From Obrimoposthia wandeli (lineage: Eukaryota): a DNA stretch of 64,000 nt. The position numbers were made by a program, and so were the translations under genes. This document shows, one piece after another, positions 2,457 through 60,769 of this stretch (its first letter is position 1; every line of letters begins with the position of its first letter). Below the pieces are notes generated by a model. That model had not been told where the DNA came from and searched no databases. It saw only the letters and a program-made list of their open reading frames with translations. The stretch spans positions 124,001-188,000 of the forward strand of contig CDROCS010005173.1 in assembly GCA_977020255.1 (NCBI GenBank), given 5' to 3'.

Positions 2457-5400
2457 ACAACGAGAAACGACGCTCGGAGATTACAGCTCTCAAAGATCGC
2501 ATCAGAGACCTGAAGATTCAGCTGATCTCTGAGAAGAACAAGCTGCAGTGTGATGTGAGTCAGTTCCTGCTAAATTTAGTCTAGCGTAGTCCACTTATTG
2601 CAGTGAGTAGTGTTTTTATGACAAATTGTGCACTGAGATCGTGACTAAAATCTTCTTCTGAAGCTCGAAGTGGCTACTGGAAAGGCTCTGAAGAGGTCTG
2701 CATCCAACGTGAGTAATGATCCTGTCCTGTGATCACGTCCTGTGTGCTGCCTTAACCATATAATTCGATGTGGTAGGTTGCGATGCTTGCTATCCAGTCC
2801 CCCAGCTGCGATTAGGTAGCCCCTTATGCTGGCGTACATCCAAACATTATGTTGTTCAAGTTCCCTTTAATCTGATTCCCTGGACGTCCATCCCTATTTA
2901 CAAATGTAGTTGTAGAAGTTGTTTAGTTGTCTCTGATTGATTATTAAGAGAATGCAACATGTGATACAAATGAAAAACTCCCAGTCTACATTTTGGTGAG
3001 AATTAAATTTCAAATTAGTCGATTTAAACAATATCCAATCAAACTCTTAACATCACTTTATTAGCTGTCTTCTTTGATCCTGAAGATTTATTTCACCTGG
3101 AGAAATAGCCGGTCAAACTGAATTCCATAACAAATAAGAGAATAAAATTAACGATAAACACACACTTATTAAAACTTACCATTCAAGATAAACGAATACC
3201 CTAACAAAAACATTATATCAACAAAGAAAAGGTGTACGTGTTATATTAAGTTTCGGACGAATATTTGGACACGGGGAGTTGTTTTAAGCAATATATTTCC
3301 AAATTTTTATAAATTTCAATCTTCAAAGGATTTCATAAAACTTCTTTAGACAGATTATCAGTATCGTGTTCGTGCTTCGTTTTTGTTAGTAAACGATCGT
3401 AATTTTGCTGGAAACATCATGCCGAATATAAAATGCAGCATTACATTGTTGTTTACATCTTCGACGACTTTTAACCTTCTTATGTCTTATAATGAAAAAT
3501 GGAAACTGCTTCTTTCTCACTGTTAAAGGTTGAGATTCTAACCCGTACACTTGCTGTCTTCAACGTTTTCTTCTAAATTTTTATTTTTTTAAAAATTCTG
3601 ATATATGAAAAATTTTTATAAGGCTTTCTAAAAATAGATTTTTGACAACCACAAAGACTGGTCAGCTTATCTACAATATAGAACCATGTAAGGGAGTTTT
3701 TATGTAACAAAAATAACAAAGTTTTAAGTAGGTGGATGTGTCCGGTCTAATCCATACGCCCTCCCCCCCTTGTCCTTTAATACCGTGCATGTGTGTGGAG
3801 TGAAATTTCACTCCACACACCTACACGAAATTTCACTCCACACACATGCACGGTTTTAAAGGACAAGGGGGGAGGGGGTGTGGATTAGACAGGACACATC
3901 CACCTACTGTTTTAATATGATATTACTGTAATAATAAAACAAAAAACATGGGAAAAAGTATGAATCAGAAAGCTGAGATAGAAAAATCCCAACCCGTAAC
4001 AACATTTAATTAAATATGTGAGAAAAACAATACTTTTTTCTCACAAAATATTTGTAATAAAAATTTGAGATAGTCAAAGATGATGTCTACCATAATGCAT
4101 TTACCCACCAAATGTCTGCTGAATATGACTTAAGGGATAGTTTTCCAATAAAATTAATGATCGTAATATTTTTGATCAATATTCCCCTAGATGTTTGGGA
4201 CTCCAAAAATATTTCCTCTTTTTTATCAACAATCAGCGACTATTATCTTACATTTCTACATATATATAGCTCTTAAAAAACCCAACGGTCAGGTGGATAT
4301 CCTATTGGGATGACACCATGCAACATTATAAAACATACAAAAATTATTCCGATTTTAACTGGAAATAATGGGAAATGTGAGCCTGATGTTCAACTCAACA
4401 TGAAAAGAAGACCTTGACTGAAAAAGTAAAATACTCATAAATTCCAATTTCTATACAGGTTGCAGTTTTATTGGTATAATCAGGATGCAAAGAAGGATCC
4501 CTAAAAGATTATTTTCATTTGATGGAAAATTTCCATGTTGTACAGTGTAAGAAACGATTTCTTTAATTATTTAAAATGAGATATTAATTGTCCAGAAATT
4601 TAAAGATTGCTAAATTGCGGTGTAATTATCACAAAATCTTGTTGGTGGACTCTGTCAAAAAGAGTTGATTTCAAGAAAATGTTTTTTTGATCCGATATTT
4701 AGATCTCTCCAATCACTGGACACTCGGAAAGATTTTAAATTTATGCATAAAAATGCCAAGAATGTTGGCATAATGTATGTAAAAATTGCCGATGTTCGAA
4801 TGTTTGGTTTGAATAACCGAGCACCCGAATAAGGTACTAACCGACCAAAAAATAGGAGGGAGTATGAATATTTACTTCAACAATTTCATCATTGTCGCCA
4901 GAGCATCCCAGTTCGAATAGTTATTTGAAAAGTGACACTGTTCAAGAGACCAAACACCTCGTCGAAATTTGTTCGATAGAAAGTATAGAAGGTATGTATG
5001 AAATGCTGTCTCCTGAATTATTATTCGATCCGTATATATTAAAAACCAAATGCTGATATTTACTGTACCCTGAATCGTTAGTTCATAGATTATTATAAAA
5101 ATATTGTGGTAACAAAATGTTAAAATGTATTCAATTTTCTAATCATATTCATGTAATGTAGGGTAGACCCAAACAACATTTATTTGTTGTGCTATTTAAT
5201 GGCTATGTAACTAAAAGAATTGTGGAAATGTATATTGAAACTATACTTTAAAAAGAGATAAACGTGGTGTACGTTGCATCGACATTAAAATTAAATGGTT
5301 TCTCTTTGATCGCAATTCAGAGTCAAACATCGGAATTAACTGAAAGCTTTATAAAAAGTTTACGGCCATCTTGCCTCTCACAGATTTGTGTCGGCCTTGG

Positions 5401-8400
5401 TAAACCTCATCAGAAAATTAGGATTGATTTTACAAAATTGAGACACACCATCTGTTAACTCTCTGACATTGGCTACAGCATTGGTTCTCATTGTTTTTAG
5501 GGTGACACCACCCTAAGATAAAATATGAAAAATTCAAAATAAATAAATAATATTTTATATCCATCAGGGAGGGAGTCGTATAAAAAAACATTATCCATCT
5601 TCAAAACATAAAAATATCGATCCAAAATTTTAAATTTTCATAAAACTTTTTCATAAACCTTTTTTAAATCACAATTCAATAACTTCCATCAATTTCTCCA
5701 TTAACAACCTTTTTTAATCACCATCACTTTCGAGGTCATTATTTCCTCTTTAAAACAAACATCACATCTTTTTACTCTCACCTTCACCACCATTTTTACT
5801 GCCCTACCCATCATGATAAATTTATTAAAATTTTAACTTATTGAACTTATTTGATTATTTTATATGATATTTTAATATTTAATATCCAACTTTTATTTAT
5901 TAGATAATCACATGCTTACTTTTATTATTCAGCATGTGATTATCTACATCTTCATATTTTCTGCACTTTCAGCTTATGTTAGACATAAGTCCGTTCCAAA
6001 ACAACAAGCATTTTTGAAATTAGAAGGATACAAATTATGAAACAATTTTTCTATTTTTTTTAATCCTTTATAATATAAAATACAAATTTAATTATTTTGA
6101 GTTTCTGTATCAATTATTTAGTATTTTTGTTTTGCAAATGAAACTGCTATCTGATTTTCTTTAGAAATAATTTTAATTTGTCAATGTCATCGTTATTTAA
6201 TCAGTCTTTGCTATTTTCCTACATCAAAAGACGAATTGGGATCTACATTTATTTTTTACAACTTTGTATTTCGAATAATACATAAATCCAATGATATGTA
6301 GAAGATTATCTTATTTTCTTTCCCTTTGATATTTACGATATATTTTTCATGAAAAATTTCATTCCAGAACTTCTCGTTGCGGAAGATGATGATCAAAAAG
6401 GAAATGGAGAAGATTTGCCACCAAATATTCAAAGCGGTAATAAGCGAATCTCCCTCATATAACCCACTTAAAATGTGTCACCAATAGAAACCTTTGCGGG
6501 TGGGAGATCAAACCAAATTGTGCATATAAGTGAATAATTTAGTGGGAATTACCTTATTATATTATCTGTCTCTCATTTTCCATGTATCGCAAGGAAATAG
6601 TCAATTTAAGATTTCAATGAAATTGTAACAAAATTAGAAATCACGTGTAAAAATTAAAGAATTCACGAACATTTCTAAATAAGGAAATTTTTTCATATAT
6701 GCAATAAATTACATTTATTCGGAATACTTCTGCGATGAAATATGTTGAAGATAAATGAAGTCACAATGGAACATGAAGTAGAGATTATCGGAAACTATAG
6801 TAGAGTATGATAAAAAAATATTCTGAATCCATTCTCATGGTCAGGACCATCAAATAAATATGTACACATCACAAAATGTTGTTAGACGCACAAAAAATAC
6901 AATCCAACAAAACGTTCCACTGATTTTGTCGTACCGGTAGTTAACCCTGGAGAGTTTTCCTTTTCTTTTTCTCGTTTTCTTAAAACAGCGGGAAATTGAA
7001 AAACTGAATAGGTCCTTGGCTAATTTTGATTGCCGCTTGCAGCAAACCGAGTTGCTGCTGCTATCGCCTAATTTCGTGTTTGTGCTGAGCAACGGCAAAG
7101 AACGTCCTCACCAGTTGCTGGTGTCCTCATTGCGCGACATCGAGACCTGGAAGTGGCATCTCGTCAAGGCTCAGAAGAGCATCACGATGTTGGACTCCGC
7201 GCAATTGTCTGGCGCAGCCATATCCGCAGTGCTCGACAAGTACCGCCGAGTTAGTCGCAGAAACCAGCCTATTTTCCTCTAACTTGCCGCCTCTCCGCAT
7301 GCGAATATTAGTCAGCTATATACTAATGATAATAATAATCAACATATCTATTGATATAAATAGTATGCAAACCATAGATAAACTAATCAAATTTTTAGCA
7401 AAACTAAGATGATGAAGAAATTGTGTTGCTATCGCCAGAACAGTTTTCATGTTCGTTTCAGCTACATGTTCACCACTGCACATCCCTCGTCACCAGTTCT
7501 GCTAACCAAAATTTCAAAATTGTGTTTTATTACTTCCAAAGATGCGAAGAAATTTCTTAATATCATATTTTAACAAAATCCAAAAGTGTAAATAAATCGA
7601 TTTATTTTTGTGATTCTCTAGAAATGTAATTTTAAAATTCACTAGCATTTTTGGGTCCTGAAAATGTGTCCTGATGAAGTTTCTCTTTCAGAATATCGAC
7701 GTCGTTAAAGTCGCGTCTTGGCCGATGACACGTGAGATTTACATTGTATTTTTTATATTTTATTATTTTTGTTTAATAATTTATATTTTCGTCAATTATC
7801 AAAATTAAAAATAAATGCCCTAAATTATATATTTTCACTTTTCTACTTAAATCTGAAGATATTCTTGAAATAATTTTACCGGTTGTTGTTAAGATATTAT
7901 TAAGATTAATTACAATACAATGGAGAATTTCTTGCAAGGGAAAAATTTGTATTAACTAAATCATTGCTAAAAGTCGAAAATAGAGATAAAACTTTTCTAT
8001 CAAATTTTAGACCGAATTCAAATCTCTCATTTCTCTTTCGTGCATCAGGTGTTATTTCTGTTCATTTTAAAGTTTTTCATAATTAAAAACAAGATTTAGT
8101 TATTTTTATAAAGTTTGGTGTATAAAGTACATATGACCTCAATTATTTACAAAGATGGCGTAGACCGTAAATACCAAAGTCTGTATGATTTAACGATTTT
8201 GTGGCTCTCTATCGTCAGACGATGACGGAGTGTCGGGAATTCTCACAGTCCACATCACCAGTATGGCCGGAGCCAACCCCGACTACAGTGAGTCTCCCTC
8301 TTCTATATGCCCGATGAGGCGGTTAGCACGGCGCTTAATCTGTGTGGCATTCCCTCCCAGAATACTACCTGGCTCTAGAGGTCGACTCATTCAAACTCCC

Positions 8401-17130: not shown

Positions 17131-17296
17131 AATTTATTGAAATCTTAGGGTATTTATTACACATAACTTGCAAAAGTACCTTTTTTCAAAAAGTTACATA
17201 ATATAATTGAATTTAACTTAAAACTACGGTCAATAAGATGAAGTTTCAAACTATGAACAATTAAAAGAGATTTGTAAAAATATGGTTAATTAGAAG

Positions 17297-23200: not shown

Positions 23201-23215
23201 CTCACATAAACTCTT
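17297..23215. mobile_element. Foldback-like structure: long diverged inverted arms enclosing degenerate repeats
   Basis: ~17297-18185 is the reverse complement of ~22405-23215 (e.g. ACAAACTTACCTGGAATC vs GATTCCAGGTAAGTTTGT; AAGAGTTTATATGAGGCATATGTTGAT vs ATCAACATATGCCTCACATAAACTCTT). The interior carries dispersed TAGAATCACCTAAATATC-type repeats. No TSD or transposase seen. Confidence 0.6.
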
Positions 23216-24175
23216 GGTATTTATACTTATTTTGATTAAGTTAAGTAAATTATATACTACTTATTTTGATGAGTATTTAAATTAAATGTATTTCTTATCA
23301 GTAGACAGTTGGCTACTTTTAGTAGTAAGTAGCTAAAGTTTTAAAAAAAATTATTATATATAACGTTATAAGACCACACCCAAAACTCTAACTAAAGCGC
23401 TAGAGTCCTAATGAGGACTTGTTTGGGCATGTATGCGAAGGACTCACTACCAGTCTTTATATGGCAGTATGAGTGGTTGGCCATTTGAAGACAAACTAAT
23501 GAAGCCCGGATCTCTTCTACTTCAAGATAATCCCGGAGCATCAATCATTCTCCAAGATATCCATTCTCTGCTAGAGAGTACTTCTCGCTGTTCAGGAACT
23601 CGTTCAATAACTTTTCTATCTTGTATTCCATTTAATCAACAATGAAATGAAACTAAAAAAATCTCTTATATACTCTTTATGACGAATTAATTTCATTGAT
23701 TGGTTAAAACAAATGATCTTTTTAAAAAACAATGTATAATATTATAAAATTCATCTAAAAATAAAATACACGTTGTAAATAATAACCTAGATACATTGAC
23801 ATGATTAAAATTATATTATGCATTATTATTTAGATAGATCACATTTGATTGAATATTGTATTATGAAATTGATGTATTTAAACATAATGTCTGTATGATG
23901 AAAGTTTCCTTTGGATATTATTATAAAACACTAAGATTAAATTTTGATAAAAATTTTGTGTTTTTTAAAAATTTAAAGTTTGTGAAATTTATAAGTTTTT
24001 GAAAATGTAATGTTTTTTAAATTTTTAAGTTTTTAAAAGTTTTTGAAAATTTAAACAAAAATATTTTTACAAAAATTTGCCAAAAATAATTTGTGGAAAA
24101 TTTGAATTGGGCACACACAAATATTGATGCATTTAAACAAAAGAATGACCTGGACCTTGTACTCTGGATAAATTA

Positions 24176-27818: not shown

Positions 27819-28263
27819 ATGCAGGAATATATCATAGATTTTATGTATTATAGATGTATGCGACGTTATTCATCCTTTGCATTTCATATTTCATATAGAT
27901 ATCCCATTTAAAAGTTTAGATTATAAGAAAAAATTTACTAATTTATATCTAACTAAATATTTCCATTTATTAAAATGGAAAGAAGAACATAAGGCTTTTT
28001 GTGAAATATGTATTTTCGATACTATTAAATCTAGTTTTGAAATTGAAAATGGAATTTTCTATGTTTTAGATGACATGGATGGCAAAAAATATAAGACTTT
28101 AAAAAAATATTTTCCTAAATTGAGGTTGAATACTTTAAATATTTCACGTGATCATCTATTAAAAATCCCACAAAATATTTCCTGTCCATATCGTAATCAT
28201 GGTGACCATTGCGCATATAAAAAATGTTTAAGTCTTTCTTATTATTACTTGACATGTAGATAA
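27819..28263 (+). CDS. Polinton accessory protein with C-terminal CxxxxH..C motif, possibly DEDD-exonuclease-like (frameshift near 5' end)
   Basis: MQEYIID from ATG 27819 then ORF 27877 (TNLYLTKYFHLLKW ... SCPYRNHGDHCAYKKC). The pattern recalls a family seen in invertebrate Polintons (recollection only). Confidence 0.45.
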
Positions 28264-28547
28264 ACAATTCTTCTAATTGGAGGAATTCATTATTAAAATT
28301 TTACAATTATTTACAAATAAGCCTTTTGATTGGAGGAATAAATTTTTTTTCAACCTATAATATATGAATAATCCTTCTCTTTAATTGGAAGAATAAAATT
28401 ATTTTTTCAACCTATAATAGATAAACAATCCTTCTCAGTGGAGGAATAAATTAAATTTTTTAATCCAATAGGAAAAGAGCATGTGTGCATAAATTTTAGC
28501 ATATAAGCAAACACTTTCTTCATTTAAATCCCCGACAATTTGAAATA

Positions 28548-31500
28548 ATGCCTATGGTAAGAATTTATTTTTATTATTTCCTTATTAATATTTATTATTT
28601 CAGATTACGTGTAACCTATTCCCTGCGTATTGCGGTGCTTCGGCTCCGCATGGAGGAGAGTCCTGCATGGAGACAATGTCTGCATACTACCGGACAAAGT
28701 CTCAAGGTGTTCTGTTCTTCGTCTGCCCCTTCTGCAGAACAATGGAGGAGAAGGAGTTTCGAGAATTCTTCTGTGAACATCGAGCTCACCTATCGTGTTT
28801 CACGGCCAACAACAAGAAGAGGGATATCGTCCAATTGGTGCGCGATTCGCAGGCCGCTCCAGCTCCACCTCCAATTCCAGTGGCAGTCAGTCTACCAGTT
28901 TATGGTCCTGCCATTGGTCCTTCTCTCCCGGCTCCTGATTCTGCTGCTGCCCCATCCACTCAAATGTCTAACAATGAGTGGATGAACGACATCTCCGAGG
29001 AAGATTTTGAGGAGTTGGCACCAATAACCCAATTCTCAAACAATGACTGGATGCGAAATATCACCCAGTCAGATTTCGAGATGGAGCAGCCTCAGTGGAG
29101 CGTTAACTCATGGTTGGAGACCATCGAGGAATCTGATTTCGTCGAGTCAACGGACGACAGCTGGATGGATTCCATCAATGAAGAGGACTTCATTCCAGCT
29201 CAACTTGGATTGTCATCATTAGGTATTTTTTTTAATTTTTTTGTAAATAGTAATTATATAATTTATTTTTTAATATATATATTTTATTTTTATTTTTTAT
29301 TCAGGAAATACCGTTCTACAATCGTCATCTGCTACAACAGATATGCCTCCACCATCGCGAGTGCCTACATCGATGTTAGGACGCCTTAGAGGTAATAATT
29401 TTTAAAAATATATTTATTTTTTAATATATTTATTTCAGCAGCACTAACCTCTACAACAGCCGCTTCTTCATCGGCAAGGTCAGCGGTCCCTTCAACATCA
29501 GCTACAGTTGCCTCAACATCGGCAGCATCAACAATAGCAGCAGCTTTCACATCAGCTGCAATTGCCTCAACATCGGCAGCATCACCAATAGCAGCACCTT
29601 CAACCTCAGCTGCGATTGTCGCAACTATTAATATAAATAGTTGTCTTCCCGTTCAATTAGGGGAAGGTTTGTCAGCGACAAACGGAAAAAAGAGGCGAGG
29701 CCAATTTCTTAATAAGGTCCTACCCAAAAAACGTAGAGAAAACGGTGCTACTATAGAGTATCACCTAAATAATAAATATGTTATAGTTAAGGTTCCATTA
29801 GGAAATGAAATTTTATTAAACGTAGGTGTAGATTCAAATATTGAAAATCTTTTAAAATCAGAAGTGACTAAATTAGGACAGGCTAAGGTTCAATTTTGCG
29901 CAACAGTGCAGTTTAAAAATGTCAATGAGGAAACTAAAACTTGGGTAATTTCACATAAAGCAACTGTTTTTTATGATAATTTTGTAACTGAAATTGGAAG
30001 AAACCTGGATGAAAAAATTGCTAATTATAGCGAGTTAAGTAGTGGATGGACTCTAGTTAGAATTCACGATGTTAGCTTTGTTCTAACAAAGTTCACTGAC
30101 ATGATATATCTTTCGGGGAGTTCATACATTCCTTCACCTAGATCTCTTCAACTTTCACGTTCCATTGTTAACGTACAAAACAGTGATAACCTTTGCTTTC
30201 TGTATAGTGTGTTGGCCATCCTCAAAAGGGATGTAATTACTGAGCATAGAGAGCGTGTCAGTAAATATACCCCTTTTTAAATGAATTGCAGTATCATGGA
30301 ATAGATTTTCCTGTTAAATTAACTGCTATATCAAGATTTGAACATCTTAATAACTTGAGTATTAATGTATTCAAATATAATACTGATATCCCAGTTAATG
30401 TAACATATGAAGAAATTTTTAAAAATCCTTTTGTAGATGTAATTTATAGGAGTAAAAATGAGGGGACTCAGGTCAACTTAATTTTCCTCGAACATAATAA
30501 AAAATTCCATTATGCTGCAATTCCCAATTTAGATCGTCTTCTAAATTTAGATAATGGAGCCTTACCGGTTAGGATAAGGTGTAAGTGGTGTCATAGATGT
30601 TTGCATGGGTTCCGATCCGAGCTCTCTTACAGCAAACATCTGACATTATGTTCACTGAATCCTGATGACAATACGCTATATAGCATGCCTAAGGATAAGG
30701 ATTTAAAATTCAGGGATTGGGCAAAATGCATACCCGTGGAATTCAGGGTGTATGCAGATTTTGAGTCAATTTTAGCATTGCACGACCAGTATGAGAGTAT
30801 TCACCTACCGGCTTCGGCAGGACTACTATTCTTAGGCCCCAATATTACCCAGTATCATAAATTTTCCGGTCCAAATTGTATTTTAGATTTTATGTTAAAA
30901 TTAGAGGAATTAGGAACAACAATTGTCAAACCGTGGTATGATATCAATGCTCATCAAGCAATGATCATGACAGGCATAGACTGGGTTAATTTTAATTCTT
31001 GTAGATTATGTTATTTGTGTGGAACCCAGTCTAAGTTAGTCAGAGATCACGATCATGTTATGGGGCAATACTTGCGAGCGGCGTGCAACCTTTGTAACCT
31101 TGGCCGTCGTCTCCCTAAAAAACCACGCATTCCCATCGTGTTTCATAACCTCAAAGGATATGATTTGCATCATATACTTAAATACGCGTTGGGTACATTA
31201 AGCTCTTGGGAAATTTCATGTATACCTCAAATTTCAGAGAAATATTTATCTTTAACTGCATATACTGAATTCTGCAGTTTAAGATTCATAGATTCTCTGC
31301 AGTTTTTGAGCGGGTCTTAAAAAAAATTTAACGGATTCTTTAAATGCATGGCCAATTACACAGTCAGTGTTCCCAGCTTCGGTTAACGATAAGGGGATTT
31401 TTCCGTATAAATTTGCGAAAACTTTCGCAGATTTAGAAAATACAACTGAAATCCCACACATAACTGAATTTGAGTGTGTAAGTCTTCAAGACTATAATGA

Positions 31501-33043
31501 GGCCCGTACATTTTGGGTGAATAATTGTCAAAATCTTCTCGAATATATGCTTTATTATATGAAGTTAGACATTTATCTTTTAGCTGATGCTTTTGAGTCC
31601 TTTCGTGTAAAGTCTTTAGCAGAAGATGGGCTAGATCCCATGCATTTCTTTAGTTTACCTGGTCTTTCATGGGCAACAGCAATAAAAACTCTTAAAATTA
31701 ATATCGAGTTACTGCAAGATCCCGCGATGTATCAAATGTATGATTATGGTATACGCGGTGGAATGACTTTTGTCAACAAACATCATGTTGTCAAAAATCA
31801 ATCCACGGAGATTCTGTACATCGATATTAATAATTTGTATGGGTGGGCGCTTACTCAACCTCTACCTCATGCCAACTTTAAGTGGGTTTATGATGTAGAT
31901 CAATTGAATAAGTTGATGATAGATTTGGCTACTGTTGAAACAGTTTCATCCGACGTCGATTATTTGGTTGAGGTAGACATAAAAATCCCTCCCAATGTGC
32001 ATGATAAATTAGATGATCTTCCAGTAGCGCCTGTTCATCAATGTCCACCTAATTCAAAGGTTAAGAAATTATTGTTAACCCATGAAGACAAGTTGAATTA
32101 TGTTGTGCATTGGTGGCTTCTTCAATTCTACTTAAAGTTGGGAGCGAAAGTTACTCGAATTCATCGTGCTATAAGCTTAAGTCAAAACTTTGTGTTTAAA
32201 GACTATATTGAGAAGAATTCAAGAAAACGTAATTTGGCCACTAGCAAATTCGATCGAGATTTTTACAAGTTAAAAAGTAATAGTCTCTTTGGAAAAACTG
32301 TAGAGGACTTGCCGAAACGTATTTGTCTACGGTTTTGCAATGATGAGCGTAAACTAATAACATATACTAGCAAGTACAACTTCAAGCGTAGTTTTACAAT
32401 TGCAGATGACTTGGTAGCAGTGTTATTAGGAAAACAGAGTATTTGTCTCGATCGACCGAGTTATATAGGTCAAACGGTTTTAGACATTTCTAAACTCAGA
32501 ATGTATGAGCTTCAAAACATAGAATTGGAGAAATACCGACAAGAATTTAATTGTGAGATTAAAATCGCAGCTGGGGACACTGACTCTTTCTTTTTAGAAT
32601 GTAGGAATATCAGTTTAAATAATCAATTATTACCAGCAATGTTTAGGGACAACTTACTAGATACCCATAAATATCCCGCTAACCATCCTCTACACTCTAT
32701 GAGTTTAAAGGACATTATCGGGAAATTTAAGGATGAAAGCGAGGGACAGGTTTCGTATGATAATTGTATTTTCCTACGCCCTAAATGCTACAGTTTACAT
32801 GCATCTAATAATACATGTTCAATGAGAGCAAAGGGTGTGGGAAGAAACAATCTTACACATGAGGCCTACCGGAAAGTTTATGATACTGGGTGTATTGAAA
32901 GCGTTCAGCAAACTAGATTTATTTCAAGAGCCCATCAACTGTATTCCCATAAATGAACCAAAATAGCTTTGAGTAGTAATGACGACAAGCGCTTTTGGGT
33001 AGAAAAGAACGCTAACCTGGCTTATGGACACTTCAGAATTTAA
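28548..33043 (+). CDS. polB: Protein-primed family B DNA polymerase (pPolB), spliced, with 2 frameshifts and 1 in-frame stop
   Basis: Exons 28548-28556, 28604-29222, 29305-29391 and 29439-33043. Motifs: YADFES (ExoI), FHNLKGYD (ExoII), YMKLDI (ExoIII), YIDINNLYG (A), KLKSNSLFGK (B), GDTDS (C), FLRPKCY, RAKGV, and the C-terminal ALSSNDDKR...YGHFRI. EndoVII-like CYLC..RDHDH..ACNLCN insert. Lesions at ~30275, ~31320 and TGA 32954-32956. Confidence 0.95.
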
Positions 33044-33317
33044 ACGGTTTTCATTCTTTGATTTTTTAGTTTAGTTTTTTTTAAATTTTAGATCCTTCTG
33101 GAACTTAGACTCTAACTTATTTGTTATTTCAATACTTTTTTAGGATGGACCTTATTTATTATGCCTTATCTTTGCTGACATATCTCATTTTGATGTTGTG
33201 ATTAATAAATGTATTAAAAAAATTGTCTTATGTCTTTTATTATTTTATCCTTATATTTTTAGAGATTTAAAAAATAATTCAAAATAAAACATTTAAAATT
33301 TTTATTTTTATAACACA

Positions 33318-33698
33318 CTAATCGTTTTGCAACGATAACCATAAAATACATAAATGTCCACAGTTTCTCGTCGCAGGATCCTGATATTGTATCTTGTTGT
33401 AAAATACTCTTCTTCGTCCTTTTTGAATAGTTGAAACAAGTTTGTGTGGATAATACATTGCAAGTGGATCAAATACATGTATTGTCCACTCTCTAACATA
33501 AATAGCTATCCAATGTTCTCCTGGTAAATTCGAAGTATGAGTATTGATAATGTAACCTCCAGATTGAAAAAATGGAATCATATCAATAGTATAAACTCCA
33601 TTGAATTTATCACCCAGGACCTTCTCAACTGATTCTTTTACTTGTTTTGAACTAAATAAAAATTAATAAATATAAATTTAAAAAATATCTTACTCCAT
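33318..33698 (-). CDS. Adenain-type maturation cysteine protease (spliced)
   Basis: NTHTSNLPGEHWIAI, FDPL and QYQDPATRNCGHLC give the H/D/Q/C catalytic set. Exon 1 (ATG GA, 33698-33694) joins exon 2 at 33651 across a 42-nt GT-AG intron, giving MDSKQV...FNGVYTIDMIP. Confidence 0.9.
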
Positions 33699-33699
33699 T

Positions 33700-34929
33700 C
33701 TATAATATGACAGTTCTGTTTTTATTGATTTGTATTTCCGAATCAAATACTCCGTAAATAAGCACCGTAGTAGGATTTGTTAAAGCTGCATTGAACTTAA
33801 TTTCTAGTCGTAAATTTCCATCCTTTGGTAGTTGGCATTGGTTTATATCAAAGTCTGGTGCCAAAACAAATGTGAAGAACGGGCAGCTGTTTTTAAAGTC
33901 AGTGAAAGAAATACCATTGTTTATATTTTTATCTAGTTGACCTAAATTCAGAATAATAGATTGGGTATAAGCCAAAGCATAAGCGTTACCTTCGAAATCT
34001 GTTTTATATGTTTCACGATAATCAGTATTTCTTGAGAGTGTCACTGAACCAACATTAAGATTGTCAAATTGAGTTGCATCTGTCGTATAATTTCCTAGAA
34101 ACTTTGCAGTTTTTTGAAAAGAAATTAAAATGAATTTCGGTAATCTTACATCACCAAAAATTTGATCCTTATTAAAAGCTTGTGTACCCGTAGCTAAAGA
34201 ATAAGATATAAGTTTAGTTTCTCTAATAGGATAACAAGCATTGTTTTTTTCCATTCCTATATTATGTGCCATTAAAACTGATTGCTCGGTTTTAACTCTT
34301 CGAACATACGATTTTGCATCCAAAATATCAAGTCTAGGTTTTAGAATGTCCGTGCTTATCAAAGAAAAATTCCATTTATTACGTTTCAAACGAAGATGTA
34401 CATTAACACCGGGAATTAAATATTTCGGTTGTTCAAAGAAATTCAATCTCAAAGACCCACACATTTCGTAAGCTTTAGAACCTGCAATCCATTCTTTGCG
34501 AGTTGCATCAGTTTTATCATAACCAATGGTTGCCAAATTAGTATTTTGAGTATCAGTACTATAATTCAAAAGACTTTCAATCAAAGCTTTATGAGCATAG
34601 GAAGAATTTCCACCTTCAATTTTGACATTATTAAGAGTAACAATGGGATCATTAAATAAAGAATAAAATAGATAATTTACAGGTGTTACATCTGCATTTT
34701 CATCTAAATTAGTACCATCCCGATTTAATACTTTTATTTGAACATAAAGCAAAGTATCATTCAAATCTAAATACTCGCTATTGGAACCATTAATATTAAA
34801 TTCTAAATCGGTTAAAGTGGTTCCTGAAACTGAGTTAACTAGGAATATTTCTTCAAAGGAAGCATTATCTACAACTACTTGTGGAAGCGGTTTATCAAAA
34901 ATACACAATTCTGTTTTGGCGCAACTTAT
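33700..34929 (-). CDS. Major capsid protein (double jelly-roll, PY/hexon-like)
   Basis: CAKTELCIF, LEFNINGS.SEYLDLNDTLLYV, PVNYLFYSLF, IESLLNY, FFEQPKYLIPGV and FVLAPD...DGNLRLEIKF match Polinton MCP motifs. The expected start codon reads ATA at 34929. Confidence 0.88.
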   Translation of the reverse strand: MSCAKTELCIFDKPLPQVVVDNASFEEIFLVNSVSGTTLTDLEFNINGSNSEYLDLNDTLLYVQIKVLNRDGTNLDENADVTPVNYLFYSLFNDPIVTLNNVKIEGGNSSYAHKALIESLLNYSTDTQNTNLATIGYDKTDATRKEWIAGSKAYEMCGSLRLNFFEQPKYLIPGVNVHLRLKRNKWNFSLISTDILKPRLDILDAKSYVRRVKTEQSVLMAHNIGMEKNNACYPIRETKLISYSLATGTQAFNKDQIFGDVRLPKFILISFQKTAKFLGNYTTDATQFDNLNVGSVTLSRNTDYRETYKTDFEGNAYALAYTQSIILNLGQLDKNINNGISFTDFKNSCPFFTFVLAPDFDINQCQLPKDGNLRLEIKFNAALTNPTTVLIYGVFDSEIQINKNRTVIL

Positions 34930-35303
34930 TTTGCAAATATTGTTCCTTCAACTTTCTTACGTTTGTTTATATTAATTTTTAGCTTCTTTTTACTTTTAAA
35001 TCCACTACCTCCTTGGCTTTTATTTGATTTACGTTTTCTAATCAAATTAGCAACTTCAGGTAAAACATTATCAAGTTCATCAAGCGCATGCTTCTTAAAA
35101 GTTGGTATTAGTTTATTGTCATTAGATGAAAGGTAATCCTTTCCTAATTTTGATATAAATCGCCCGAGTCTCTTTAAAAGAGGAAAGGCAAATCTACCTA
35201 ATGTTCTAAGCCAGCCAGATCCGTATTGTTTACCAACAAAATATGGTAATTCTCCACCTCGTTGGCTTTGACTATAAGCTTCAATTATTGCTGGATTCGC
35301 CAT
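34926..35303 (-). CDS. Small basic Polinton structural/core protein with protease-type GG/GSG sites and amphipathic helix
   Basis: QSQRGG-ELPYFVGKQYGSG-WLRTLGRFAFPLLKRLGRF with a K/R-rich tail; sits between the capsid genes. Confidence 0.75.
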   Translation of the reverse strand: MANPAIIEAYSQSQRGGELPYFVGKQYGSGWLRTLGRFAFPLLKRLGRFISKLGKDYLSSNDNKLIPTFKKHALDELDNVLPEVANLIRKRKSNKSQGGSGFKSKKKLKININKRKKVEGTIFAK

Positions 35304-36338
35304 TTTGTTTTCTTAAATGTATTGTTAAACTTGTCTTGGCCCCGTACGTGAAATCTATTAGTTGTCCGGAATCATCTCTAATATTTACTTCAATATTGTT
35401 TATAGAAAAGAGAGAAACTGGAAGATACATTGTTGATCTATACACATACCGACAGTATCCCCATCTCTAGTTTCATTTTTAGATATCCATATTGTTCTCA
35501 AAAGTGGAACTCGCTGTCCTCCTACAAGCGTTGGTTCTATTAAATTAGTATAAATACATAAATGATTAACAGCATTTAAAAGTTTTGCCTTATTTTTAGC
35601 TTTTATGGTTTTTATTATATGGGTTTCAAAGGTATTTCTGTTTAAACCAAGGTTTTTAGCGAGTTTATCATCAAATGAAACTCGTTTTATATTGCTCTTT
35701 ACTGTAAACGTTAATTTACCATTTAATGTTTCACATTTATCCAAATATTCACTATATTCCTTCTGTATTAATTTACAGAAATTCACTTCACTATCTATTT
35801 TATAATCTTTTGAAAACGTTTTCAGTTCCACTACAGTCTTTGGTCTCGTTTCAAGTAACAACACTTTTGCTACTCTACCAGTAACATTTCTAACCGAATT
35901 AGATGAGATAATAACCCGTTTATAACGAGCTACTGTTTGTTCACTATCAAAACTGAATTGAAGAGCTTCTTTTTTAGATTCAAAATTAATTTTAATAACT
36001 TGAAGAAATTTTAATCGATTTTTAAATCTGACTTTGTTATTTTCAAATATTACTTTCACTTCTTTATCTATACAATTGTAATAGAATTGTCCTTTACTAT
36101 CAAACCCGATCACAACTTCAGTTGTTTTTTCTTGATCAACTTCTTTTGTAAACGAAATATGTGAGTTTTTTTTGATAGTAATTGGAGAATAATAAAAAGA
36201 AAATTCTGTTAAAGCCGCTTCCCATTCTCCTTGGAGATTTATAGAATTTTCCCAATCGATAATAAAGCTACTAGCGTCATTATCTGGTTGAGTTTTCGGA
36301 CATCCGTTACTTGGTAAAACCATATACATAGAATTCAT
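35281..36338 (-). CDS. Minor capsid protein (penton/PX-like), frameshifted near 3' end
   Basis: N-terminal YMVLPSN...PDNDASSF...L.GEWEAALTEFS; C-terminal IYTNLIEPTLVGGQRVPLLRTI. The conserved tail NIEVNIRDDSG...HLRK is in another frame ending TGA at 35281. Confidence 0.85.
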
Positions 36339-37417
36339 ATTATATTAGATGCTGATATCCAAGTTGGGTCTGAATAACCATGCCATTTAACAAAGTATTG
36401 TTTATGTTTACCTGTACCCTTAGATTTTAATATTTTTTGAATACGGAAAACGCTAGGTTTATTTGATATTACTTGTAGTTCTTGCTCGTAAAATTTACCG
36501 TGAACGATATTATTGTCAGCATTTTTAATAGTATACATTATTGGATTACTCTTTTGATCAATTTTACTTATACAAAATATTTCATCGCTCCAATTCTGAT
36601 CAAGGTTTTTAATAAATGGAGTAGAGCTAATTTTCGAAATTCGGACATAATTGTTTTTCTTATATTTAGCTTTTTTAATATTTTCTTTTTTATTCCTGAT
36701 CATCCAAATATCTATAGAATTTTTATTAGTAACATCAACAGGTCTCATTCCCATGAGACCTCTATGTTCCGAGTGATTATAGGCATGTATTATTTTAGGT
36801 AAAACTTGGATCCATTTTTTATTTTCTTCTTTTGTGAAATACGTTTTTATTCGATCTCTTAGAGTACGATTAAATCTTTCTACTACTGCTGCTTTGTATT
36901 GTGAAAACACAGAGTAATGATTTATATTATTTTGTTTAAATAATGATTGAACTTGCTTATTATAAAATTCTTTTCCTAAATCAGTTTGCACATTTTGTGG
37001 AATGTCCTCTTTTAATATTTCTTTAATGGCTTCAAGCATAGCTATTGAAGACTTTGCTTTAACTGGAATTGCACAAGCAAACCTGCTAAATACATCAATA
37101 CATGTAAAAATATATCGATATCCCTTATTAATGGAAGAATATGGGATCATCTCCATCAAATCCATTTGCCATAAATTATTAGGACCGCTGGTTTTGTAAG
37201 CTCTAGTTGGAAACCTTCTTCTCATCGGCTTGTTCAGACTGTAGGCTAACTGGTCGCTCAGCCATTTCTGCGTTTTCTTGTAATTTTGTTTTGTTCTTTT
37301 TGCTAATTTTGAAACTCCTGTGTAGCCAATTGGATCTTTTGGATTGAACCATATCTTCTCCATTACAACAATTTGAATAGAAAGAAAATTTAAGTTTAGG
37401 TAAAGAAGGTCTAGCAC
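36335..37417 (-). CDS. int: Retroviral-like DDE integrase with C-terminal chromodomain (first ATG at 37363)
   Basis: WQMDL, CIDVFSRFA, VQTDLGKEF, KAAVVERFNRTL, YNHSEH, NWSDEIF; chromodomain YFVKWHGYSDPTWI; intact ORF. Confidence 0.95.
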   Translation of the reverse strand: MLDLLYLNLNFLSIQIVVMEKIWFNPKDPIGYTGVSKLAKRTKQNYKKTQKWLSDQLAYSLNKPMRRRFPTRAYKTSGPNNLWQMDLMEMIPYSSINKGYRYIFTCIDVFSRFACAIPVKAKSSIAMLEAIKEILKEDIPQNVQTDLGKEFYNKQVQSLFKQNNINHYSVFSQYKAAVVERFNRTLRDRIKTYFTKEENKKWIQVLPKIIHAYNHSEHRGLMGMRPVDVTNKNSIDIWMIRNKKENIKKAKYKKNNYVRISKISSTPFIKNLDQNWSDEIFCISKIDQKSNPIMYTIKNADNNIVHGKFYEQELQVISNKPSVFRIQKILKSKGTGKHKQYFVKWHGYSDPTWISASNII

Positions 37418-37421
37418 CCAT
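37203..37421 (-). CDS. Putative 72-aa overprinted ORF with N-myristoylation consensus, overlapping the integrase 5' end
   Basis: MGARPS...NCCN in a strong Kozak context. The same length and frame are retained in copy 2 (MGANTS, 54818-55036). Confidence 0.45.
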   Translation of the reverse strand: MGARPSLPKLKFSFYSNCCNGEDMVQSKRSNWLHRSFKISKKNKTKLQENAEMAERPVSLQSEQADEKKVSN

Positions 37422-37449
37422 ATCTTTAGCTGATTTTAGAAATAATTGT

Positions 37450-37778
37450 TTATGAACGTGTCGCAGCTATAATACTACTGATACTTGAAGCAACAACTGG
37501 AATAACAGCCCCTATGAAACCACCATTCTGTTTAAGAATAATATTTCGTTTCCTTTTTTACTTTTTACATTAGCAATATTTAGAAGAGTTTTTCTATATT
37601 TCTTTAATATATTTTTCCGATTTCCAACTTTTACTCGACCCAAAACTATATTATACAAAACTTCCAATAAATCATCTACAACAAAGGATGGAAATGCTTT
37701 AAGAATAATCATTCTCTTATTAGAAGAGGCTTTGACTAAAGCTTTAAAATAGGGTATGCTTCTTTGTATTTTCTTCAT
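37450..37778 (-). CDS. Small conserved Polinton protein ending in a GG-F amphipathic peptide (frameshift in A-run)
   Basis: DDLLEVLYNIVLGRV...KKYRKTLL.IA...IILKQNGGFIGAVIPVVASIISSII. The tail is in a second frame here and contiguous with the middle part in copy 2. Confidence 0.7.
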
Positions 37779-37955
37779 TTTAATAAAAAGGGTTTAATTT
37801 AAATATTGTTTATATTCGAAGCCATTTAAGTTTTTTTTTATTTTTAACTACAGATTTGATTAATTTTTTCACTACTTTTTACTTAATGATTTTTTTTTGA
37901 TTTCTTAGATTTTACTTTACGTTTTACTATCAACTTTGTAAAAGGCATTGCGAAT

Positions 37956-38603
37956 TTATTTTTTATAATTGTTCTCTATTTGTTTATAAACAGTTACTCC
38001 CTTAGAATTAAATATGTCTGTTAAAACACGTAAATCATCTGGGCAAGCTTGTGTAAAGTCAATAAATATATACCCATGTGCTTGTTTAGCAGCATCGTGG
38101 AATGAATCAACTAAAAAGTTCTTATTTTGGGGAAATGCCTGTCTGGCCACAAAATCAACAACTGTTTGATCTCTAGGATTTTTAAATAAAACTAAGTAAT
38201 GTACATTAAGATTTCTTGTTCTATGGTGACCTCCTTGGTGAAACAGATTTTGAGTGATAAATATAACTGTTACTTCACGATGTCTTGCAATCTTTGTAAA
38301 TAAATTATTAAAGTCTGATTCCTTGTTAGCCTCCTCATACAAATCATTAATTATTATTACATCTTCTTTTTTCAATCTTTCACACCAATTTGCATCAAAT
38401 CCTTCAATAAATTTTATACCCTTCAACTTGCAAACTTCTGTTTTGGTTAACCCGCTTTCCCCTCCTCCACCAAGATGCCAATAAATATTTTTGAAACTAG
38501 ATTTGAAAAGAGATTCATTTTGCAACAATTTACAGACGAAATGTGTCTTTCCACTTCCACTTGGGCCAACTATTTGAAATACAGCATTATTATTTAGCTC
38601 CAT
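37956..38603 (-). CDS. A32/FtsK-type DNA packaging ATPase
   Basis: Walker A GPSGSGKT; Walker B VIIINDL (IIIDDL in copy 2); FTKIARHREVTVIFITQNLF; LFKNPRD; HGYIFID. Confidence 0.93.
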   Translation of the reverse strand: MELNNNAVFQIVGPSGSGKTHFVCKLLQNESLFKSSFKNIYWHLGGGGESGLTKTEVCKLKGIKFIEGFDANWCERLKKEDVIIINDLYEEANKESDFNNLFTKIARHREVTVIFITQNLFHQGGHHRTRNLNVHYLVLFKNPRDQTVVDFVARQAFPQNKNFLVDSFHDAAKQAHGYIFIDFTQACPDDLRVLTDIFNSKGVTVYKQIENNYKK

Positions 38604-38640
38604 TGCATATACTCTTTCATTTTTAATATTGTTTATATTA

Positions 38641-38913
38641 TCATAGAAGTTTCCTTATTGAAATGTACAATGTTAGAGCTATTGTAGATGAAATACAAAA
38701 ATTCATTAATGAATATTTGGCTATAATTTTATTTATTTGTGTACGATTTCTAAATTCTTGAATAACGTGTGATCTAACCAATATTTCAATGTTATCTCTT
38801 GTTATATCATTATTTTTGAATTCTGATAAAATTTATTTACCCTTAATTTTTCCAGAAAATATTTCGTTGGCAAGACGATCCACTTCATTGTCTCTATTTA
38901 TAGTATTATTCAT
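38641..38913 (-). pseudogene. Small unknown Polinton ORF (premature stop in copy 1)
   Basis: Homologous to intact ORF 56260-56541; GAA to TAA at 38833. Confidence 0.5.
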
Positions 38914-39443
38914 TTGAAACAATAAGTTTAAACGGGTTTGTTTATAGAAAAAAGATGACAAGATGTAATAAGATATATTTTCTAAAATCAAATCAACTAT
39001 GTCTGGATAATCAAAGTTTTTCAATCCCAATATCATAACTTTACCACTGGAAAATATATTTACACATAGCGGTTTAAACTTCAAATAACTGAGAGCAGGA
39101 AAAATTTCTGGTTCAAACATGCATTCTTCTTTCATTTTCTCTGCAGTTTTAAAAAGATTTATCTGTTTCCCGAGATTATCCGAAATCGTGATTGATTGTA
39201 TTGCAGTGATTTGAATTCCAAATGGTAAATTGAACCCAAGCATTGGTATTTTGCATCCCATAACACGACAATTTCCTAAAGAATTCAATATGAAAATAAA
39301 ATAAAAAACTAACCTGTAGGAAAAATAACAACAGTGAAATTGTCAAACTTTTCTACATATTGTCTCGGCTTCCATTCATTGAATGGTAAGTACGAAACAT
39401 CATCTTCTGTTCTACCTTTATAATTTATATTTACGAGTTTCAT
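38833..39443 (-). CDS. TBP (TATA-binding protein)-fold protein, two exons, encoded by the Polinton
   Basis: Exon 1 39443-39314, 38-nt intron 39313-39276, exon 2 from 39275. Repeat 1: LVNI...TVVIFPTGNCRVMG. Repeat 2: IQSITISDNLGKQINL...MFEPEIFPALSY..FKPLCVNIFSSGKVMILG (cf. TBP YEPELFPGLIY..KP.IVLLIFVSGKVVLTG). A 2-nt indel extends the C-terminus in this copy. Confidence 0.85.
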
Positions 39444-39539
39444 TAGACTGAAATTGTATTCTGTAAAATCTTCTTTATATATGTCTGAACCTGCTTTTTT
39501 ATTGCACGTTTCTTGTAATTATCTTGCAAACCTATTATA

Positions 39540-39725
39540 ATTGGATGATATATTTCTTCCAATCAAATTTGATTTTTAATATGGTTTTAGTCCAATCAAA
39601 TTTGATTTTTAATATGGTTTTAGTCCAATCAAATTCAATGCTTTAGTTATATTAACCAATGAGATTCATTTCTTTGTTAGAAATTAGTATAAAAGAATGC
39701 GCCATTGGAGGACAAATCACAGTAA
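39540..39725. promoter_or_regulatory. Divergent promoter region with phased CCAAT boxes and a TATA box
   Basis: CCAAT at 39559, 39592, 39625 and 39656; TATAAAAG at 39688; located between divergently oriented genes. Confidence 0.6.
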
Positions 39726-40214
39726 ATGCATTCATATCAAAGACAATTATCAACAATGGATGATAGCCAACGGGTATTAAGCGATGACGAAGAAATGTTT
39801 GAAGAATCGGATAAGGATATGTATGAAGAAGTGAAACAATATTTCAAATACAAAGTCAGATTCTTGAAGAAGGCTCAACTGATTGCTTTAGTAAATCCTG
39901 TGACAATTGAAAGAAGAAAGTTCAGCTACTATCTATCAGGTATTCAAAAACCTGATTTTCAATATCTTAAACAGAAAATAGAAAAGGCAGTTCCGAATTT
40001 TACTTTCAATAAGAACGAATTTTATATCCGAGGACCAGATGAAGCATTTCTAGATGACTATGGAAGATATCTTGATATTGATGCGTTTCCGAAAAAGAAG
40101 CAATGGACTGTAACAATTCGACTTTATGGTTACAAGAAGGATGAAATGGAACAAAGTTGCCTATGTGGAAAATTGAACGTACTCATATTTCTATGTTTTA
40201 ACTTTTGCGTGTAA
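39726..40214 (+). CDS. Unknown Polinton protein A (paralog of B; OB-fold SSB candidate)
   Basis: Acidic N-terminus, then FLKKAQLIALVNPVTI...WTVTIRLYGY. A 3' frameshift relative to copy 2 is present. Confidence 0.65.
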   Translation: MHSYQRQLSTMDDSQRVLSDDEEMFEESDKDMYEEVKQYFKYKVRFLKKAQLIALVNPVTIERRKFSYYLSGIQKPDFQYLKQKIEKAVPNFTFNKNEFYIRGPDEAFLDDYGRYLDIDAFPKKKQWTVTIRLYGYKKDEMEQSCLCGKLNVLIFLCFNFCV

Positions 40215-40333
40215 TAAATTGTAATCGGTTTTACTATGTTTCCTTCATTTAATAATCAGTTTTATTTGTATCTTATTTGTATCTTATGTGTATTTTTATA
40301 AACATTGTTTTTAATCAGTTTCCTTATTTTAGA

Positions 40334-40738
40334 ATGGATAAGAGATGTGTAGCAAATTTTTATTATCCAGAAAGAATTTCAAAAGGAAAACTATGTAATA
40401 TATTAAAGAGGCATCAAATTATACGAATTATGAATCCTGTGAAAATATCAAAAGTGGAGAAAAAATATCTCATCGAAATTTTAGTAACAACTGATTTTGA
40501 TCAACTGAAAAATATTTTGGGATTTTACATTCCTGATTATGTATATGAAGGAAATTGTTTCGAGCTTGAAACTGATCCCAGTCTGGATTTTAAAGATGAT
40601 CCAGGATATTTGATTGCTCCAATTCTAGATGAAGAACTATGGAATATCTCAATACGTGTGAATGGATATTTTGCTGGTGACGGGAAAATGCAGCCTCTCT
40701 AGACTTTGAGTGAAGCCAATATGTTGTTTTATGTTTAA
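40334..40738 (+). CDS. Unknown Polinton protein B (paralog of A; TGG to TAG nonsense at 40700)
   Basis: ILKRHQIIRIMNPVKI...WNISIRVNGY...QPL*TL; intact in copy 2 (57929-58333). Confidence 0.65.
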
Positions 40739-40989: not shown

Positions 40990-41326
40990 AATATGGTGGG
41001 GGGTACCCCCCTTCCTTCCCCCCTTTGAGTGGAATGGAGACACACATACACGAAATTTCACTCCACACACCTACACGAATTTTCACTCCGCACACATGCA
41101 TGAATTTTCACTCCACACACATGCATGAATTTTCACTCCACACACATGCTCGGTTTTAAAGGACAGTAGGGGGTCCCCTTCTTTCCCCCCTTTGGGTGGA
41201 ATGGATACACACATACACGAAATTTCACTCCACACACCTACACGAAATTTCACTCCACACACCTACACGGTTTTAAAGGACAGGAGGGGAGGGGGGTGTG
41301 GATTAGACCGGACACATTCACCTACT
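40990..41326. repeat. Right TIR/subterminal repeats of Polinton copy 1
   Basis: Duplicated ~170/110-bp blocks built of 25-bp units (TTTCACTCCACACACCTACACGAAA), ending in CACCTACT. Confidence 0.9.
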
Positions 41327-52470: not shown

Positions 52471-53020
52471 AGTAGGTGGATATGTCCGGTCTAATCCTTC
52501 CCCTCCCTATTCCCCGTGCATGTGTATGGAGTAAAATTTCATGCATGTGTGTGTGAAGTGAAATTTCATGCCTGTGGAGTGAATTTTTTTCTATCTCTCC
52601 CTATCTCCTAAAACACCCTAAAAACAAATAACCCCATTTAACACCCTCTAAAATTGAAACTCTCATAGTGGTCCAAAAAAGTGAGGAAGTGCTTGAAAGG
52701 CCATCTAATAGCCAACGCGTGCCCTTCGGGCCCGCGGTGGCCTGATGAGCAATACATATATACAGGGTCACGAAAAAACATTCACGCCCTGAGAACGCGA
52801 AAAACCTTTCCTTATAAGTATTTATATCCAGATAAACTCAAAAGGCTAGTTTTTCTTACATTATACCCTCCAAATATGCACAGTCAAAAAATATTACTAT
52901 TTTAAATCCAATGACATACATGTATTCAATCATCATCAAAAAACTAAAGAAAATACTATAAATTTTCAAATTAATGATTTGAATAATACGTACTAAAGTT
53001 ACGTACTTAACTTTGGCAGT

Positions 53021-58760: not shown

Positions 58761-60769
58761 TCGAGTCGAAAGGCGCAAAAAATGTTTGTGGGACCCCCCT
58801 TGTCCTTTAAAACCGTGTATGTGCGTGGAGTGAAATTTCACTCCACACACATGCATGGTTTTAAAGGATAAGGGGGGAGGGGCTGTGGATTAGACCGGAC
58901 ACATCCACCTACTCGCAAATGACCACAAATATTTGAGATCCGTTTTGATAGACTGTTGATTTTTCAGGGTCAATATTGGGGCATTCACAAAGTCCAGGAA
59001 TGCTCTGTGGATTCTATTTTCCATTTCGATGTTTTTTGATCAATAAAAAAGGCCTTTCTCGCGATTGTCGAGAAAATTTGATATTTATCTTTGACTCATT
59101 CGATGTAAACATCAGTTGGGTCATGTAAGTGCCATTTTCAAATAGAAAGTCCTTATTTAGTTCTAAGGAGACCTTCTCCAAAATTTCGTGTTGCTTTCTT
59201 AAAAAAAGTGTAAAGAATCCGACTTTGACGTCTGCTCTGTCAAGAGTTACGATAAAATCTTCTTTCAGAAAGTGCTGCTTCTTTTAATCGACATGGCCGA
59301 TAACCTCCACAAAAATCAGGAAAACTGTGACCAATAAATATAAATATTTATTCATGGTTAAAATGGTACATAATTCGTGGTCATCATCTTTTATAGCAGT
59401 GACAATATCGATCTTTGTACACTTCTAAAACATGGTGGAATTTTTTGAGGGCTAAATTTTGGTGATAAAATTACATACCCTCAAACCACTTGACATCAGA
59501 TTCATTGAAAACAATACATTGTACTCAATTCACTTATGGTAAAATTTAACTGATAATACACATACACAAATCTCGAATTGTACTTCAATTCAGAAAAACA
59601 AAATTGTTTATGTCAATTTACATGTGTTTATTTATTTTCACCTAATCGTGTATTTTAAGTATCAATTTACAAGTACGATCTTTGACAAATGATAAAATTG
59701 TCAAACAACTTTCTAAACTTTTGGCACTTCATTTTTGTATGATTTCGGTTTTAATCTTCCTTTCAAATAAATGCATAACATATTATAAGTACTAAAGTAT
59801 TTTAAGTATAATTAATCAATATTTTTGAGCATCATCGTTTTTCGAAATTTAGAATCGCCTCGACTTTATATATTATAAAGTTGTCCGCAAACATTTACCA
59901 GCTTAATTAATATTGTTTGATCCACAACTGATCACCTCCTTCAAAAATAGTTTATAAAATTTGCTTTTATTTATTATAAGGAAACCCTGTATTAAATACA
60001 TTTATGACGCATACAAATAGAAAATGGTAACCGAGAAAATAGTAAATAAAATCTTAAGATTCATTATTTTTATTAGTCCATCTCAGTTTGATGGGTGGAT
60101 CAAATAGAGTTTGAAAGTATTTTGAAATTTGGACTGAAATTTGTAACAAATGTTTTGGTCAGCTTATATGATTATAAACGTAGCAGAAAATGTACTATTT
60201 GTGTTTGTGCTTTTATAATATGGTCACATTAATTGTAAATTCAATAATTTGTTAAATATGTATACAATTATTTGTACAATAAGTCATTCTTGGACAATCC
60301 AAATAACACTATAATGATTCAATAGGTTGTAATTTTTTAAGTAATTGTAATTTCGGGCAATTGAAATAAAATTTACAAGATAAATGGACTTAGTGTTGGG
60401 AATTAAAATATTACAATTTAAATTTAAATCAATTTATCGAAGTGCCCACAGTCGAACAGCAATTTTTGTCCGTGATATCCAGGTTTTATCTTGTGCTTCG
60501 CAGTAAGAAAATTTCCGCGAAGTAGAAGATAACACAGAAGAAATGACTGCATCCTCTATTGATTTTTCTGCCTATCCAATTTTAAGTGCACCACATACAC
60601 ACACATGTTATTTTATTGCTTCTATCTGTGTAGTGGTGCCGATTTACGTGTGTGTCTGCAAATTTATGTAATGTCACTTATGATAGAAAAATGAATATAA
60701 AATTGTTGGACATAGAGAGATTTGATATAATATCTAAAACTACTTTTTTGAATTGCTACAGAAAAGAAG

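Follow-up and report, generated by a model that had tools for sequence, protein, structure and literature searches.

The 64,000-nt stretch of Obrimoposthia wandeli DNA analysed here (the window) contains a genuine, cleanly bounded Polinton derivative that consists only of element ends and was inserted with a target-site duplication (TSD). The origin that we favour, at somewhat better than even chances, is that this mini-element is a non-coding defective mini-genome of the resident Polinton/Maverick family, integrated while already short by a helper integrase. It spans 182 bp (3727-3908), begins with AGTAGG, ends with CCTACT and has GTTTTA on each side. A near-palindrome of this size with a perfect 6-bp TSD had been proposed from the letters alone; its coordinates, the GTTTTA pair and the match between the arms, which are identical in 78 of 83 columns (four substitutions and one indel), were all reproduced. 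Comparison of lengths from 2 to 10 showed that the duplication is exactly 6 bp and that no other length fits, the probability of a chance 6-mer match in the AT-rich flanks being approximately 0.0006-0.001. Its assignment to the Polinton type is upheld by the published Maverick signature, AG...CT ends together with a 6-bp TSD (PMC8097293). The AG...CT ends are present, and AGTAGG shares five of the six letters of (AGT)2.

As DNA, the mini-element folds into a hairpin of -93 kcal/mol (z -19.9), and none of 200 shuffles was equally stable. The whole element is terminus and non-coding, 182 bp leaving no room for pPolB, integrase, ATPase, protease or capsid. It is short and non-coding, with TIRs of at least 10 bp and a TSD, and so has the size and form of a MITE (approximately 100-800 bp in the definition given in PMC7764229). 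An Rfam RNA family was considered and rejected, as 20 of 20 matches were miRNA-precursor models below the gathering threshold, which is expected for any long hairpin.

Table 1. Features of the mini-element, its host locus and the neighbouring Polintons (positions within the window).
Feature	Position	Strand	Basis or remark
Left TSD, GTTTTA	3721..3726	.	Only length 6 matches
Left arm: 27-nt tip, C-rich spacer and one 25-bp-type unit, to the junction centre	3727..3805	+	Sequence comparison
Junction word GAAATTTC, self-complementary; a direct repeat across the two arms and a site for fold-back priming	3802..3809	.	
Hairpin loop, 17 nt, remainder of the extra 25-bp unit	3810..3826	+	
Right arm, second GAAATTTC to tip	3827..3908	-	Arm comparison; contigs exiting at 3908
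Right TSD, GTTTTA	3909..3914	.	Only length 6 matches
Probable phase-0 intron of host RhoGAP-domain gene	2554..6988	+	Inferred from splice signals and phase
Polinton A gene block: pPolB in pieces, protease-like ORF, double-jelly-roll capsid, integrase with chromodomain, A32 ATPase, TBP homologue	27838..40702	.	Left limit uncertain
Right end of Polinton A, with a pair of 25-bp-unit modules and the tip shared with the mini-element	40996..41326	-	93.5% identity to the mini-element over 108 nt
Left tip of deleted element B, in a Gypsy LTR	52471..52590	+	Subterminal part unlike the mini-element arms (62 matches, 12-13 gap columns)
Right end of element B, with the other head-to-head junction (a unit on either side; centre 58835/58836)	58790..58913	-	

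Five copies of the 27-nt tip, each with at most one mismatch, are present in the 64-kb window: two in the mini-element and one each at 41326, 52471 and 58913. At the last three positions the tip (0-1 mismatch) adjoins integrase/ATPase gene blocks, which bears out the reading of the mini-element ends as Polinton ends. The gene set of an autonomous Polinton is found in the neighbouring Polinton A and not in the 182-bp element. Domain matches in Polinton A include integrase with chromodomain (rve+chromo, 2e-13), A32 (1e-05) and DNA polymerase (3e-11), and the jelly-roll capsid has an Atlas score of 0.97; a further ORF is presumably protease-like, judging from its motif. Nine ORFs match a single metagenomic locus (L009) with the same gene set. 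A TBP homologue (38833-39342, minus strand; Pfam TBP 1.5e-10) adjoins the packaging ATPase and is 50% conserved in L009. The right end of Polinton A is composed of two head-to-tail modules with four and two GAA[A/T]TTTC words, respectively, and the spacer separating such modules takes many further forms among the contigs, so that the subterminal region is highly plastic. No left tip of Polinton A was found in the window within 8 mismatches.

Element B (52471-58913) has a tip on both sides and is 94.5% identical to Polinton A over 5,467 columns. It has kept the integrase and ATPase, the pPolB and capsid side is missing, and no TSD was found around it. The arms of the mini-element match the two right-type tips in the window at 73-78 of 82-83 positions, compared with 62 matches and 12-13 gap columns against the only left-type tip (n = 1), which comes from this rearranged element without a TSD. 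Between the gene block and the right end of B, a 21-bp tandem repeat and longer related repeats (58449-58790) stand in for the corresponding Polinton A sequence, and are absent elsewhere in the window. The Gypsy element hosting the left tip of B is represented by LTR pieces at 48492-48598 and 52365-52471 and by a reverse transcriptase at 50054-50665 (minus strand), the remaining LTR being missing. Polinton A and the Gypsy element are separated by exons of a zinc-finger gene of the host (zf-POGZ, C2H2; 43246-47042, minus strand). The window also holds an old inverted repeat pair of approximately 900 bp (17277-18182 and 22412-23233; 77.6%), which bounds about 6 kb and is unrelated to the Polinton tips, and a tandem array of approximately 131-bp units (61200-64000) that runs past the window end.

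Contigs from two runs (X1 and X2) of one sample were matched to positions 3367-4266, giving 28,067 contigs in X1 and 23,295 in X2. Unique contigs enter the tips of the mini-element from both flanks with no mismatches at depth 50, and the locus is real. The insertion is probably homozygous: the junction contigs stand at the full flank depth of 50, with one other record at 25, and no empty allele of the locus was seen among the contigs of this sample in either run. It is very improbable that the mini-element belongs to an unrelated cut-and-paste MITE family lying beside Polinton genes, or is a hairpin assembly artefact. Such readings would be consistent with the difference between A and B in the DNA separating the shared gene block from the right tip, and with the observation that none of the listed contigs spans the mini-element from end to end. 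The tips border two separate gene-block copies at three ends, however, the combination of AG..CT ends and a 6-bp TSD agrees with Polintons (PMC8097293), and the unique contigs crossing both flanks into the tips argue against an artefact. A joint seen in both runs at depth 48 leads from 3700 to 3915, the base that immediately follows the right TSD; it has a side of 23 nt and unread middle letters, and may represent a paralogous empty site.

The mini-element was earlier placed inside a host intron, and this remains probable from the gene signals in the DNA. Splicing from a GT donor (2554) to an AG acceptor (6987-6988) would join two GC-rich open stretches in phase 0, and farther downstream there is a RhoGAP exon (12808-12975). 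Homologue mapping gave the placement no support, as none of 31 RhoGAP homologues of at least 300 aa mapped convincingly to either flanking exon, and the Atlas PH lead for the host gene scored under 0.9. The multi-exon gene with the RhoGAP domain extends over 2458-16375 (plus strand), and its upstream exons look PH- and C2-like, an order of domains that may correspond to a BCR/ABR-type layout. If the mini-element is intronic, a near-perfect 83-bp hairpin would be transcribed with the host pre-mRNA and could give small RNAs against Polinton ends.

The arms meet in a self-complementary core which the sequence-only reading treated as part of the 25-bp subterminal unit. Only 8 bp of the unit, GAAATTTC, are self-complementary. 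The longest self-complementary words in the natural array of a long element are also 8 bp (GAAATTTC and CATGCATG), and the palindrome of 22-30 bp was therefore created by the junction. Its 22-bp form occurs twice in the window (3795-3816 and 58825-58846) and in none of 100 shuffles. An extra 25-bp unit is found in the right arm of the mini-element (3802-3826 and 3827-3851). The second head-to-head junction, in element B, has one unit on each side and no loop.

GAAATTTC is its own reverse complement and can therefore serve in two roles: copies at opposite ends of an element are direct repeats of one another, and within a single end the word can prime fold-back. The 3' base of a strand that runs from the tip and ends after the second GAAATTTC pairs with the first word with p=0.94, as compared to p=0.09 for a strand ending after the first word, and the natural end of Polinton A behaves in the same way. 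A self-priming hairpin is possible at the junction, at about -4 to -5.5 kcal/mol with a loop of 15-17 nt. When the folded strand is extended to the tip, its length is 107+75 = 182 nt and its units number 1+2, the extra unit being the loop; this equals the mini-element.

The earlier reading correctly named two rival origins, a short element mobilised in trans and a full element that collapsed, and overlooked a third route, the fold-back of a single end, which explains the extra unit as a hairpin loop. Under the short insertion that we favour, a template switch would have taken place during extrachromosomal, protein-primed replication, either as a fold-back of one end or as a jump between the arms of a panhandle. 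In the former case, the strand copied inward from the tip would stop after the second GAAATTTC and pair its 3' end with the first word, leaving a 17-nt loop; once extended to the tip again, it would measure 182 nt and have one unit in one arm and two in the other. This hairpin, already a panhandle, would then be made double-stranded and integrated, the TSD being gained in trans, and the five differences between the arms would have arisen after integration. We consider the fold-back of one end slightly the better candidate for the template switch, and the left-right jump a little short of an even chance.

A product of fold-back must arise off the chromosome, and integration in trans would supply the TSD. 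Both arms are nearer to right-type tips, as predicted by the mirror copy of one end. In support of a short insertion we counted the exact TSD, the intact tips, the fold-back geometry, the abundance of tips and the presence of helper genes in the window; the mechanism proposed for Polintons also includes a single-stranded racket intermediate, according to passages of PMC4196379. Against it, the mini-element is the single full copy with its own TSD that could be read in the window and in the contigs of this sample. The same letters would also result if a deletion joined left unit 1 to right unit 2 of an integrated element, and the asymmetry between left and right depends on a single left tip, whose element has no TSD. 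Against fold-back in particular, the 1+1 junction of B is not a direct fold-back product.

Another explanation, which we consider improbable, is that head-to-head ends (tip, arm, mirrored arm) are native to some subfamily, and that recombination between their direct repeats of approximately 84 bp left a "solo end" in the manner of a solo LTR. The right end of B (58790-58913) does have such a form at the end of a long element. However, the form is absent from the right end of A and the left end of B, the inner arm of B terminates like the inner module of A and not like a tip, and the extra unit of the mini-element is left unexplained.

The contigs also bear on the number and variety of such ends. 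Contigs that leave at exactly 3908 into unrelated flanks (191 in X1 and 92 in X2; agreement about 0.4) fix the boundary and imply many insertion sites, of long or short elements. The summed depth of two tip bins is approximately 136,000 times the flank depth, and division by 31 for contig overlap gives a floor of approximately 4,400 tips, neither value being a copy number. This suggests that tips are present in thousands or more, with rough bounds of 4,400-136,000. The upper part of this range cannot consist entirely of 15-kb elements in approximately 0.9 Gb of contigs, whereas the lower bound is compatible with long elements. A count of junction copies from the depth at 3790-3799 was dropped, since a contig may match either arm (5,032 of 28,067 had two possible placements). 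At positions 3755, 3758 and 3781, minority letters of the window, considered as markers of a clonal subfamily, leave a residual depth that would allow anything between a few and approximately 260 copy-equivalents.

Among the 15 joints listed out of 40, eight connect a left and a right arm, with different breakpoints and depths of 50-160 against a single-copy depth of 50. In most of them the sides are short (20-27 nt) and the middles unread; some may come from long elements that end in inverted modules. The centre of the mini-element is crossed by one 80-nt contig, which has depth 54 and differs by six substitutions and nine gap letters. Counting 58825-58846, head-to-head junctions are present at at least three loci. 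Outside the sample, neither tip nor junction patterns matched public viral contigs, metagenomes or prokaryote genomes; BLASTn with the mini-element gave no match in any of 25 loci with related integrases, and no relatives of the integrase were found in viral contigs.

These joints are part of the case for a collapse in place, which we regard as a substantial if less probable alternative. Here an integrated full or partly deleted Polinton would have lost its interior between a left and a right GAAATTTC, by slippage or microhomology-mediated joining, leaving the 182 bp as an immobile scar. Such a collapse yields the identical sequence with no extra assumption. It is consistent with the differing tip-to-arm joints at about single-copy depth, with the diverged 80-nt centre contig, with the 1+1 junction of B, and with the decaying or deleted state of the long copies in the window (A without a left tip, B internally deleted). 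It would, on the other hand, require a deletion of approximately 15 kb with 8-10 bp of homology at both ends and leave the exact fold-back geometry as a coincidence, and both arms of the mini-element are right-type, the sole left tip observed being different.

Precedents for a collapse are available. In the nearly precise excision of Tn10, a terminus-only remnant stays at the insertion site. This excision proceeds by copy choice (PMC12524634, a secondary source, in the passage concerned), and resembles a collapse in that copy choice takes place between short repeats inside long inverted repeats; unlike the mini-element, Tn10 is prokaryotic and its remnant immobile. Casposons likewise leave solo TIRs, by repeated degradation as stated in part of PMC4779613. 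Both are terminus-only remnants, but the casposon remnant is prokaryotic, immobile and limited to one TIR, whereas the mini-element keeps both and a TSD.

A comparison of junctions, shared or different among copies, had been suggested as a means of separating the two origins. This comparison is confounded, since the core comes out identical whichever left and right units are joined at GAAATTTC. Shared junctions can thus arise by recurrence and are no proof of trans-mobilisation, and as a left-by-right deletion gives an identical product, the junction cannot separate insertion from collapse. Nor does it hold that either origin would define the minimal cis sequence. A collapse scar says nothing about cis requirements, and a tip-to-tip joint of approximately 71 nt, present in both runs, argues against 182 bp as the minimum.

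Returning to the insertion of a short element, its closest relatives in print are of several kinds. Non-autonomous Polintons were reportedly described by Kapitonov and Jurka in 2006, and are said to be much longer than 182 bp. They are like the mini-element in being helper-dependent derivatives that retain the ends. A name of the non-autonomous style, Polinton-1N1_DR, appears in a portion of PMC9341505, and Tlr1 is termed a non-autonomous polinton in a passage of PMC5499653; for the anole, the sections available of PMC3014272 report Polintons without non-autonomous copies. Vertebrate Polinton/Maverick elements have AG...CT ends, TIRs of 46-1,447 bp, a 6-bp TSD and lengths of 12.7-24.6 kb, according to the relevant part of PMC8097293. 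The mini-element shares the AG...CT ends, the TIR (83 bp) and the 6-bp TSD, and its neighbouring parent has pPolB, integrase, ATPase and capsid; it differs in lacking genes, in its length of 182 bp and in its terminal hexamer, which is AGTAGG and not (AGT)2.

The Helicoverpa "Maverick" MITEs, classed by TIR and TSD analysis, are 50-800 bp long with TIRs of 10-42 bp and a 6-bp TSD (passages of PMC7764229 and PMC9033116). The mini-element resembles them in size, TIRs and TSD. In contrast to them, it is all terminus and has parent ends in the same window, the passages on the Helicoverpa elements giving no link to a parent Polinton. In AAV, snap-back defective genomes arise as a mirror copy of one genome end by fold-back in single-strand replication (10.1101/2020.10.20.346957, in part). 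AAV is, however, a hairpin-primed parvovirus whose snap-back genomes measure hundreds to thousands of bases and are packaged, not integrated with a TSD. The sections available of PMC8504770, PMC12220804, PMC6431247, PMC11296320 and 10.1101/2025.02.07.637071 contain nothing on ends-only Polintons. Our literature search found no account of a Polinton derivative below 200 bp tied to its parent, nor of a fold-back junction, and was too partial to establish absence from print.

Non-autonomous Polintons and "Maverick MITEs" are thus already in print as named kinds, and the value of the mini-element would lie in its fold-back geometry and in the apparent abundance of ends. By analogy, it would work like a MITE or a defective viral genome, and its status as a uniform, amplified, trans-mobilised MITE is putative. 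We consider it rather unlikely that the genome harbours hundreds to thousands of snap-back Polinton mini-genomes of less than 200 bp, formed by fold-back at the second GAAATTTC and copied and integrated by helper pPolB and integrase. Varied, near-single-copy joints resemble many one-off events and count against an amplified family, although sides of 20-27 nt make these joints weak. If there is such a snap-back family, it would bound the origin and integration signal to at most 83 bp per end, perhaps at most 28 bp, and in its fixed n / n+1 unit geometry the genome would preserve a direct footprint of the single-stranded replication intermediate proposed for animal Polintons.

If the ends are scars, they would show one way in which Polinton interiors disappear from hosts as the ends accumulate, a sink like that of solo LTRs; this would be useful for annotation and less surprising than insertion in trans. 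The replication and integration of animal Polintons is a model inferred from sequence, as presented in part of PMC4196379. If ends-only elements were inserted in trans, this open mechanism would become testable. The cis signals for pPolB and integrase would be bounded, a failure of the replication intermediate would be recorded in the genome, and the mini-elements would compete with their helper in the manner of defective interfering genomes.
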